Origin: Escherichia coli
Lineage (GTDB): Bacteria; Pseudomonadota; Gammaproteobacteria; Enterobacterales; Enterobacteriaceae
DNA length: 64,000 bases
Assembly (NCBI RefSeq): GCF_003334785.1
Contig: NZ_QOWV01000011.1
Strand: one strand, 5' to 3'
Position 1 is the first letter of the stretch. Each line of letters starts with the position of its first letter. Below, one piece after another: positions 38,856-39,914 of this stretch. The translations under genes and the position numbers were made by a program. The notes beneath the pieces are model-generated. The model did no database searches. It was not told the origin of the DNA and was given only the letters and a program-made list of their open reading frames with translations.

Positions 38856-39176
38856 TTACTTATCAACGACCTGCCAGCCATCATCTGTTTTGACCAGCTT
38901 GACAGCCGCTGTGCGTTTTTCGTTATCGACAACAGCTGTTACATTGCATTTATAGCTTTTATCCGATAGTTTTTCGCAGTCGTGTTTTTTGACTGATTTT
39001 AACTTCCGCAGCATGTCAGGCGTGATATCGTTTCTCGCTATGGATTTAACGATGGCATTCGTCTGCTCCACGACCTTATTCATCGCAGTGTAAATATCCT
39101 GCTCAGACGGTTCACTGGTGCAGCCGGTCAGCAAAAAAATGGACGCAATGAGTGTGGTAAATGCATATGTTTTCAT
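38856..39176 (-). CDS. Lipoprotein (106 aa)
   Basis: Signal peptide with lipobox LLTGC (MKTYAFTTLIASIFLLTGCTSEP). Confidence 0.6.
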   Translation of the reverse strand: MKTYAFTTLIASIFLLTGCTSEPSEQDIYTAMNKVVEQTNAIVKSIARNDITPDMLRKLKSVKKHDCEKLSDKSYKCNVTAVVDNEKRTAAVKLVKTDDGWQVVDK

Positions 39177-39202
39177 AAAATAATCCCAGACGGTAGAGTA
39201 CG

Positions 39203-39601
39203 TTATTGAAAAAGGCCGGTTTTCATCTTGCTGTTGTTTTCAGAGAACGTCCACTTGCTGACGGTTTCGCCTTTAAATTCGATTTCCAGCGTTTTGGCCT
39301 GCGTCTGTGAACCCCCGGTCAGCAGTCCAATCACGGGAATGAATGTGGTGGCATCAAACTGATTGTTGTCCATCGAATAAGTCCATTGTTCATTGCCACT
39401 ATCAAGTGTAGTTTTGGTTTCGGGCTGACCGAATGCGGTAATGATTTCTGATTTCGTTGTTTTATTTTTGATGATTTTCGACTGCAGACTTTGTGATGTT
39501 TCTTTTTTTAGATGCTGGTTGCCTGATGTTGAACAGCCAGAAATAAGTAAAGAAGAAATAAAAAACACAGAAATCATGAATCTGTTCATAAGTTTTCTCA
39601 T
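39203..39601 (-). CDS. Lipoprotein (132 aa)
   Basis: Signal peptide with lipobox LISGC (MRKLMNRFMISVFFISSLLISGCSTSG). Confidence 0.6.
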   Translation of the reverse strand: MRKLMNRFMISVFFISSLLISGCSTSGNQHLKKETSQSLQSKIIKNKTTKSEIITAFGQPETKTTLDSGNEQWTYSMDNNQFDATTFIPVIGLLTGGSQTQAKTLEIEFKGETVSKWTFSENNSKMKTGLFQ

Positions 39602-39638
39602 ATTAATTTTTTATGTTTGCGGTGGTGTGAAATTAATA

Positions 39639-39914
39639 TCATCTTATAAAAACAACTCTGTCTGCATATTTCTTTTTAATAATGCAGATAAGAATAATGA
39701 CGCTGGCAAAAAACGTAATGACTGAGGCAGGAGTGCTGCCGGTCAATGAAAACACTAACCAGGCGAGAGCTAATGCCACGAATTGAAACAGGAATGCCAC
39801 ACTGAGTGGACTTTCACCATAGGCCACTTTTGCATGGCAACCTTTGCAAACCCGCACACCGTGTGGGCTTTGTGTAAAGCAGAAAGGGCAGCTAATCGTT
39901 TTATTATCCATCAT
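39639..39914 (-). CDS. Small membrane protein with N-terminal zinc-ribbon (CxxC...CxxC)
   Basis: 91-aa ORF: CPFC...CKGC followed by two hydrophobic helices. Confidence 0.5.
   Translation of the reverse strand: MMDNKTISCPFCFTQSPHGVRVCKGCHAKVAYGESPLSVAFLFQFVALALAWLVFSLTGSTPASVITFFASVIILICIIKKKYADRVVFIR

Follow-up and report, generated by a model that had tools for sequence, protein, structure and literature searches.

A conserved three-gene envelope operon beside the relaxase of an Enterobacterales mobilisable island, possibly an exclusion module

Results

An operon of three envelope genes downstream of a relaxase

The window analysed here is a 64,000-nucleotide stretch of the Escherichia coli chromosome (contig NZ_QOWV01000011.1, assembly GCF_003334785.1) that carries a low-GC island at ~24.5-53 kb (GC content 0.32-0.45 compared with ~0.52), abutting ssrA (tmRNA, 54114-54476) and an integrase gene. 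Our subject is a set of three adjacent minus-strand genes in this island, A (39639-39914), B (39203-39601) and C (38856-39176), which encode a small membrane protein and two lipoproteins. An earlier note on this DNA had described such a cluster at 38856-39914, and the open reading frames (ORFs) lie exactly as described there. The intergenic gaps are short, about 37-49 nt and 26 nt. Directly 3' of C, an intrinsic-terminator-like hairpin on the minus strand (38798-38831; GGCAGGA...TCCTGCC followed by TTTTT) closes the A-B-C transcription unit and is shared with the convergent gene D.

The gene immediately upstream of A (40100-41329, minus strand) encodes a PF03432-type relaxase, as the earlier note had supposed. 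The protein matches the NCBIfam models MobB/TraI_MobP/MbpB, PF03432 scores on its homologues, and RefSeq names the gene 'relaxase/mobilization nuclease domain-containing protein'. Over its N-terminal 250 residues it shares 43-50% identity with the relaxases of small mobilisable plasmids. The stretch from the relaxase gene to A has no predicted terminator.

A, B and C are real genes under purifying selection, as confirmed by their many homologues, by the retention of lipoboxes and cysteines and by low ratios of nonsynonymous to synonymous substitution (dN/dS). Counting homologues at E<=0.001 and clustering at 90% identity gives 350 clusters for B, 53 for A and 112 for C, and all named ones are from Enterobacterales. 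In pairwise comparisons with divergent copies from E. coli and Salmonella, dN/dS is 0.08-0.22 for A, 0.08-0.18 for B and 0.13-0.16 for C, hence 0.08-0.22 across the operon, compared with 0.19 for the relaxase. Scans of the three window proteins against NCBIfam, Pfam, PADLOC and PDB sequences returned no significant match, and no PADLOC defence-system model matches A, B, C or D.

Gene A encodes a predicted zinc-ribbon protein of the inner membrane

Protein A has 91 residues, or 90 with the RefSeq start one codon later. Its N-terminus reads M(M)DNKTISCPFCFTQSPHGVRVCKGCHAKVAYGE and the sequence MMDNKTISCPFCFTQSPHGVRVCKGCHAK... contains a CPFC-x10-CKGC ribbon. The hydropathy profile shows two hydrophobic segments, at residues ~36-58 and ~65-80, joined by the loop TGSTPA and followed by the basic tail KKKYADRVVFIR; the C-terminal motif is YADRVVFIR. 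All four cysteines are invariant in an alignment of 13 sequences reaching down to 37% identity, and the ribbon cysteines are present in nearly all of the ~130 listed remote relatives of 84-125 aa. Together, the cysteines and the hydropathy profile bear out the description in the earlier note of a CxxC...CxxC ribbon with two transmembrane (TM) helices. Judged by the spacing and conservation of the CxxC pairs, the ribbon is a putative zinc ribbon; the Pfam DZR family gives a weak match (E=0.0066). We predict an N-in/C-in topology because basic residues occur at both ends, so that A would form an inner-membrane hairpin with both the ribbon and the C-terminal motif in the cytoplasm and only the short loop in the periplasm. 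Across the wider family the consensus is CPHC..GA.VCRGCQAE..YG, then two TM segments, then DRVVFKRxYRT.

Many homologues of A are frameshifted at the run AAAAAGAAA (window ~39665-39673), which converts ...KKKYADRVVFIR to ...KRNMQTELFLYGDINFT... (for example P0148, P0151-P0155 and P0159-P0161). These frameshifts could represent decay, homopolymer sequencing errors or a slippage-based switch.

Genes B and C encode predicted lipoproteins

From their basic n-regions, hydrophobic h-regions and lipoboxes, B and C are both predicted to be lipidated. The calls were made by rule ([LVI][ASTVI][GAS]C) together with conservation, and they support the two small lipoproteins with clear lipoboxes claimed in the earlier note. 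The lipobox is present in 106 of 120 B homologues and 103 of 112 C homologues, most of the others appearing truncated or partial, and the lipid-attachment cysteine is invariant or nearly so in both families.

B comprises 132 residues (128 from the RefSeq start at 39589). Its signal peptide MNRFMISVFFISSLLISG ends in the lipobox LISG↓C, and because Ser occupies position +2 the protein is predicted to reside in the outer membrane. An AlphaFold2 model has a confident core of a divergent BamE/SmpA_OmlA-type fold, in agreement with the published Phyre2 result for SEN1984 (PMC10655114). A conserved insertion of ~20 aa, FIPVIGLLTGGSQTQ, interrupts this core; residues 76-94 are modelled with low confidence and yet are highly conserved. 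Pfam BamE/SmpA_OmlA (PF04355) scores E=0.19 on the window protein, while five of eight family members reach E<=0.001, the best 1.7e-5. B also matches phrog_3135 (E=5e-24), and RefSeq lists the identical protein WP_001079017.1 as 'SEN1984 family lipoprotein'; in NCBIfam release 20 no model scores above threshold for B. We rejected B as a BamE orthologue on the basis of an hhalign probability of 34% against E. coli BamE, 24% identity and the 20-aa insertion; the host has a bamE of its own at another place in the window, near ssrA.

The 106-residue protein C has the signal peptide MKTYAFTTLIASIFLLTG and the lipobox LLTG↓C, with Thr at position +2; in homologues this position is T, N or S, and D in eight. 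Two further cysteines, C67 and C77, are invariant and probably form a disulfide. The predicted structure (pLDDT 80) packs a single long helix against a four-stranded sheet. In a Foldseek search of AFDB50 this model retrieves small lipoproteins, several of them DUF4878 (E 6.5e-7 to 1e-2), with no Pfam DUF4878 match by sequence. We read the modelled C as a generic NTF2/DUF4878-like (cystatin-like) lipoprotein. Searches of the PDB sequences with profiles of B and C gave only noise.

Three other assignments of C were discarded. The resemblance to VirB8 is that of a generic NTF2/cystatin fold and does not extend to VirB8 architecture or to a sequence relation; the NCBI name 'cell wall-binding protein' finds no domain or family support in NCBIfam and Pfam scans; and a PHROG 'Cor' match covers residues 7-40, which is the signal peptide only.

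The operon belongs to the backbone of a family of mobilisable islands

Among 5426 complete E. coli genomes, 272 contain the module in whole or in part, and in all of them it is chromosomal. We read eleven chromosomal island loci (L001-L008, L013, L014, L113 and L114, with L002-L005 representing one island type) from E. coli, Pectobacterium and several NCBI draft assemblies. They share a core of a MobC-like gene, the relaxase gene, A, B and C, convergent with gene D (141 aa), after which come a 128-aa gene, a ~620-aa 'DNA-binding' gene and tyrosine recombinases. Most loci contain A, B and C together; L008 has A alone and the Pectobacterium locus L006 has C alone. By tblastn, A is present in island loci even where it is unannotated. 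A (47%), C (42-53%) and D (42-47%) diverge in parallel with MobC and the relaxase (47-61%), and B is the most conserved (65-71%).

By comparison, the rest of the islands is variable. Defence cargo includes Kiwa, BamHI-type and other restriction-modification systems, Pycsar, SIR2, PLD+AAA, TIR, a Gabija-like nuclease with UvrD and retron Eco8, and in the window a NACHT and a RelA/SpoT protein. Integration sites also differ (ssrA, mutS-ygbA and others). We conclude firmly that A-B-C is part of the conserved backbone, and not of the cargo, of a family of integrative mobilisable elements (IMEs) in Enterobacterales that is related to the EARL islands.

A near-identity DNA search of plasmids found a single match, a linear Salmonella contig of 3.6 kb that is recorded as a plasmid; we rejected it as such since it is a fragment of the same chromosomal island. 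For C, tblastn against plasmids gave no match.

Relatives on EARL islands, plasmids and phages

EARL islands are defined by a P4-like integrase at tRNA-Asn, a recombination directionality factor with a SEN1998-like gene, MobQ with TraD, and type IV pilin/PilV genes (PMC6035254). In ROD21 of Salmonella Enteritidis, SEN1980 encodes a MobA/MobL relaxase, SEN1981A an 87-aa membrane protein, SEN1982 a lipoprotein and SEN1984 an exported protein (PMC3198454; PMC10655114). The EARL island of E. coli CFT073, at serU, encodes a 91-aa protein with 39% full-length identity to A, a CPFC...CTGC ribbon, two TM segments and a ...NVVF tail. Its gene immediately follows that of a 176-aa lipoprotein, and the pair matches SEN1981A/SEN1982. 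The same island contains a frameshifted pseudogene 33-34% identical to B. By these comparisons A and B, and not C, are shared with EARL islands, whose relaxase system (MobQ and TraD) is unrelated. The window island also has DUF6387 (SEN1998-like) and AlpA-type genes. We regard it as EARL-related and not as a member because of its ssrA site, its PF03432 relaxase with a MobC-like gene and its lack of pilin genes. The P0267 loci, considered as ROD21 itself, were rejected: they carry the PF03432 relaxase module, and SEN1982 (~180 aa) is unrelated to C.

Further relatives of A (35-39% identity) reside on ~30-33-kb plasmids of Klebsiella, Citrobacter and Enterobacter (L019, NZ_CP124876.1, 32,954 bp, and ~50 similar ones), directly after the gene for a 99-aa lipoprotein. 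These plasmids, typed 'non-mobilizable', also encode two type-4 pilins, H-NS, a DotA/TraY protein, an LPD7 protein and several ankyrin proteins, and have the appearance of 'hitchers' that ride on a conjugation system of the I type (MPF_I). In IncI exclusion, ExcA is known to target TraY. A is thus repeatedly paired with a lipoprotein, of a family that differs from one element to another (176 aa in CFT073, 99 aa on the ~33-kb plasmids).

The A family extends to minimal elements: 3.9-kb plasmids whose only other genes encode Rep (PriCT), a MobA/MobL relaxase, a TraD-like protein and a helix-turn-helix (HTH) protein (L022-L024), and a ~2.7-kb element with a 390-aa protein that by eye resembles a tyrosine recombinase (L109-L111). 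The contigs of each are permutations of one another, which suggests that both are circular. Another member lies on a ~100-kb contig, in a row of small genes that includes SSB. With the island loci, where homologues stand beside MobC-like and relaxase genes, the MobQ-bearing EARL islands and the 3.9-kb Rep+Mob plasmid, the homologues of the cluster are tied to mobilisation modules.

Relatives of B have a wider range. Proteins ~40% identical to B are encoded directly after cI in lambdoid phages (Salmonella phage S107, Escherichia phage PhiR26_1), others are morons before the tape-measure gene of Klebsiella phages, and others again are found on Burkholderia MPF_F conjugative plasmids, ~4 kb downstream of traG and not adjacent to it. 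In IMG/VR, 144 contigs carry a B relative when searched with a mixed alignment, the enterobacterial B alignment alone giving three close copies. In ~43 of the best 80 IMG/VR contigs a CI-type repressor gene ends ~0.05-1.5 kb upstream on the same strand. This cI-linked slot is the position used by lambda rexAB. In one IMG/VR subgroup (L070) the relative shares ~87% identity with the S107 protein and is encoded between KilA-N/tail genes and the tape measure. These phage, prophage and plasmid contexts mark B as a mobile, moron-type cassette, sited where prophage genes are typically expressed in the lysogen.

In L070, the tail-moron B homologue is directly followed by a gene for a second small secreted protein (5420-5815, plus strand; 131 aa, signal peptide MKKALFALLALMSFSAVSA), which suggests a two-gene moron cassette.

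Flanking genes and candidate regulatory features

The 185-bp spacer between the relaxase and A (39915-40099, minus strand) contains three copies of ATCGATC(G), all of which include a GATC Dam site. An 8-bp inverted repeat at 40039-40063, TATCGATC-N9-GATCGATA, is made up of two of the copies, and the third lies at 39993-40000. The repeats are a possible promoter/operator of A-B-C. Positions 39690-40078, which cover the start of A and most of the spacer, are 85% conserved in a Salmonella contig.

Upstream, a gene for a MobC-like relaxosome accessory protein (41326-41733, minus strand) overlaps the relaxase start; the call derives from plasmids, on which the neighbouring gene carries a MobC annotation. 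An ankyrin-repeat gene (41935-42888, minus strand) adjoins it. Between the two lies a hairpin on the minus strand (41832-41860) with a 13-bp stem (GGGTATACTATTT...AAATGGTATACCT) followed by a T-run, which would be either the terminator of the ankyrin gene or the inverted repeat of an island oriT. On the other side of the operon, backbone gene D (38289-38714, plus strand; 141 aa) is convergent with C. D ends in the basic tail ...VVRKRL and the ankyrin-repeat protein in SSVRKRL. Homologues of D (window, L002, L006-L008, L012-L014) keep a basic tail and a final Leu (VVRKRL, GGRKRL, SSRKRARL, VVRVRNFRL...), and the Salmonella homologue of the ankyrin-repeat protein ends in SPKRKRI. Since the positively charged C-terminus is shared by two genes that flank the mobilisation operon, it suggests a translocation signal for a type IV secretion system (T4SS), by which both proteins might be sent into the recipient.

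Between an HTH gene (36686-37249) and D, about 1 kb (37250-38220) contains no convincing ORF and no Rfam match; the gap recurs in related islands (e.g. L113, 949-1929). The cargo at 45028-48047 (plus strand) encodes two proteins, the first with a NACHT domain (704 aa) and the second with a RelA/SpoT domain (301 aa), probably a defence pair; for the second, PADLOC gives only a weak PDC-S33 match. An Rfam scan of 24-56 kb found the tmRNA and one tRNA only. ARAGORN assigns a tRNA-Met (CAT anticodon) at 27889-27964 (plus strand), in the low-GC region, the RefSeq equivalent of which is a tRNA-Ile of the lysidine-modified type. As this tRNA lies near ypjC/ypjA-type genes, the low-GC stretch is probably a composite of two or more elements or remnants.

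Discussion

A possible exclusion module

Our best-supported reading of A-B-C is a resident-cell exclusion or 'gatekeeper' module, which we put forward tentatively and at somewhat less than an even chance. The earlier note had pointed to exclusion on account of the gene order. The proteins are of envelope type and their homologues are strongly associated with mobilisation modules, which supports the suggestion in part; the homology to entry-exclusion proteins that it proposed to look for was not found. We infer every functional step of the model, building on the observed genes, localisation signals, folds, backbone position and distribution. The operon would act in a cell that already carries the element, as do TraS/TraT of F and Imm/Sp of T4. 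B, anchored in the outer membrane, may use its BamE/BLIP-type binding fold to shield or perturb a component of the surface or periplasm on which incoming donors, be they mating partners, phages or both, depend. A, spanning the inner membrane with its two conserved ends predicted to be cytoplasmic, would hinder translocation of DNA or protein there, and C could serve as an auxiliary binder, a lipoprotein facing the periplasm.

Several lines of evidence favour exclusion. An inner-membrane protein and an outer-membrane lipoprotein beside transfer genes reproduce the TraS/TraT layout. The three genes are separable, as L008, L006 and the CFT073 B pseudogene demonstrate, and often decayed, which fits dispensable accessory factors and not essential transfer machinery. 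Phage relatives of B hold the classic slot of exclusion genes expressed in the lysogen. Many exclusion factors are small lipoproteins, among them TrbK, pKM101 Eex, TraT and Sfx (PMC11493245; PMC5704250), and IMEs can carry them, since homologues of Sfx occur on such elements (PMC11493245). Finally, Eex and TraS act via cytoplasmic determinants of an inner-membrane protein (PMC11493245; PMC5704250), and the conserved parts of A are likewise predicted to be cytoplasmic.

Other observations weigh against an exclusion function. The island has no T4SS gene, so the usual rule that an exclusion gene stands beside its target cannot be applied. None of the known exclusion families (TraT, TraS, TrbK, Eex, ExcA, EexA/B, Sfx, MbeD) is matched at E<=0.1 in NCBIfam, Pfam, PADLOC or PDB sequences, and no close homologues of A, B or C were found on enterobacterial conjugative plasmids, the possible helpers. 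Tests for diversifying selection, or for evolution of A, B or C faster than that of the relaxase, gave none, and the operon bears no sign of specificity alleles, A and C diverging in step with the relaxase. The periplasmic loop of A has only ~6 residues, which makes direct contact with B or C doubtful. In a profile search the A family spans 236 clusters at 50% identity, and this broad family has at least one ordinary chromosomal context. Moreover, SEN1982, the lipoprotein beside SEN1981A in ROD21, has a reported effect on organ colonisation in mice (PMC10655114), which suggests a role in host interaction.

Alternative explanations

The genes might instead be accessories of mobilisation on the donor side, A anchoring the relaxosome or relaxase at the membrane near the coupling protein of the helper and the lipoproteins adapting the helper's mating channel. 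Such functions have precedents: the small MobB of R1162 is reported to anchor the relaxosome or relaxase at the membrane, and SGI1 remodels the mating channel of its helper with TraN/TraG/TraH variants. The place of the operon directly after the relaxase, the predicted cytoplasmic location of the conserved parts of A and the A-like gene among only ~5 genes on 3.9-kb Rep+MobA/MobL plasmids all agree with this explanation. So do the pilin, PilV and DotA/TraY genes of related elements, plainly aimed at the helper apparatus, and the IMEs known to have VirB6/VirB8-type parts (PMC5704250). We still consider it unlikely. Otherwise intact-looking islands lack one gene or another (A in L006; B and C in L008), A is often frameshifted and B is a pseudogene in CFT073, where the A-like gene moreover lies on the opposite strand from mobQ with cargo in between. 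Small plasmids with the closest relaxases do without A, B and C; relatives of B occur in phages, which do not conjugate; and the likeness of C to VirB8 is that of a generic NTF2/cystatin fold.

A role of the three proteins in the physiology or virulence of the host, as conversion-type envelope factors for outer-membrane protein assembly, stress or serum resistance or colonisation, with B as a BamE paralogue, also seems rather improbable to us. The module sits in the conserved backbone by the transfer genes, where the adaptive cargo of these islands varies, and is found alike in commensal, animal-associated and plant-associated Enterobacterales. B itself is remote from host BamE by identity, hhalign probability and its conserved insertion, although Phyre2 gave the same fold for SEN1984 (PMC10655114) and relatives of B are classic prophage morons, like Bor and Lom. 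Deletion of SEN1982 is reported to attenuate colonisation of spleen and liver (PMC10655114), but SEN1982 is not homologous to B or C. Less probable again, and in our view quite unlikely, is anti-phage defence or abortive infection with A as a small membrane effector that is triggered or restrained by the periplasmic lipoproteins. Small proteins with two TM segments often serve as defence effectors, the islands are rich in defence systems, and B relatives occupy the cI-linked slot of rexAB; yet PADLOC matches none of the proteins, the module is constant in position and content where defence cargo is variable, its parts occur singly, and A has no obvious sensor and only a tiny loop.

If we return to exclusion, a broader proposal follows, which we advance as a speculation with the odds clearly against it. 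A, with its adjacent and interchangeable lipoprotein, might be an unrecognised exclusion system typical of elements that are not self-transmissible, namely IMEs, EARL islands, pilin/TraY 'hitcher' plasmids and minimal Mob plasmids. The B family might be an 'envelope gatekeeper' shared by phages, plasmids and islands and directed at the entry of conjugative and phage DNA, possibly via BAM-dependent surface receptors.

Novelty and significance

The gene families already carry database names, and homologues are listed as uncharacterised in the ROD21 papers. Four points we did not find described in the available literature: that A, B and C form part of the backbone that a large IME family conserves, that members of the A family are recurrently paired with lipoproteins that are interchangeable, that the A family occurs on minimal Mob plasmids, and that the B family includes prophage morons linked to cI. 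Literature searches on BamE-like lipoproteins in prophage exclusion and on the IME family of A-B-C found nothing relevant. Exclusion by mobilisable, as opposed to self-transmissible, elements is barely documented, and the Sfx-bearing IMEs have been called possibly its first instance (PMC11493245). Since a large share of the anti-phage defences of E. coli, Salmonella and Klebsiella is carried by these islands, control over their entry, establishment and competition affects the spread of defence and, for ROD21-type islands, of virulence. Should A-B-C prove to be an exclusion module, it would provide new, sequence-unrelated exclusion families, link phage morons with the control of conjugation and give a function to the SEN1981A/SEN1984-type 'hypothetical lipoproteins' of the ROD21 literature. 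If the genes are merely host-envelope accessories, the finding is an ordinary one.

Comparison with known systems

The closest relatives are the ROD21/EARL islands. They share with the window island an A-like protein (39% identity to the 91-aa CFT073 protein encoded after a lipoprotein gene), a SEN1984-type relative of B (33-34%), DUF6387 (SEN1998-like), an AlpA-type regulator and an HTH protein, and both kinds of island are non-self-transmissible. They differ in relaxase module and insertion site, the window having a PF03432 relaxase with a MobC-like protein at ssrA and no pilin/PilV, whereas EARL islands have MobQ with TraD at tRNA-Asn. C has no EARL counterpart, the ~180-aa SEN1982 being unrelated.

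In arrangement, the operon recalls TraS/TraT of F, which are likewise encoded by adjacent genes in or near the transfer genes and comprise a small inner-membrane protein and an outer-membrane lipoprotein, so that the predicted compartments match. There is no sequence similarity, however, and TraS/TraT stand beside their target traG on a self-transmissible plasmid, unlike the operon on this T4SS-less island; A-B-C also has a second lipoprotein, and A a zinc ribbon. RP4 TrbK, pKM101 Eex and Sfx, the last from IncC plasmids and from MGIVchHai6-type and other IMEs (PMC11493245), resemble B and C in being lipoprotein exclusion factors, and the Sfx homologues on IMEs indicate that mobilisable islands can encode exclusion. 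Sfx, at ~290 aa, is unrelated to our proteins, and its IME versions are clear homologues of the helper's own factor, in contrast to A, B and C, which have no close homologue on enterobacterial conjugative plasmids. ColE1 MbeD offers a parallel in setting: it is encoded in the mob region of a mobilisable, non-conjugative replicon and mild exclusion has been attributed to it (PMC11493245; PMC3832669), although family scans show no similarity of A, B or C to it.

Among proteins with its predicted fold, BamE (SmpA/OmlA) and the BLIP/OsmE-fold binders, including immunity proteins of type VI secretion and contact-dependent inhibition systems, B is set apart by the conserved 20-residue insertion and by carriage on mobile elements. 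Its relatives in the cI-adjacent or tail-region moron slots of lambdoid prophages bring it close to prophage morons and superinfection exclusion, as exemplified by the lambda rexAB slot; phrog_3135 itself is not known to confer exclusion. Although rexAB, T4 Imm and Sp, T5 Llp and Cor have no sequence relation to A, B or C, Imm and Sp of T4 likewise pair a small protein of the membrane with a factor that is periplasmic or a lipoprotein.

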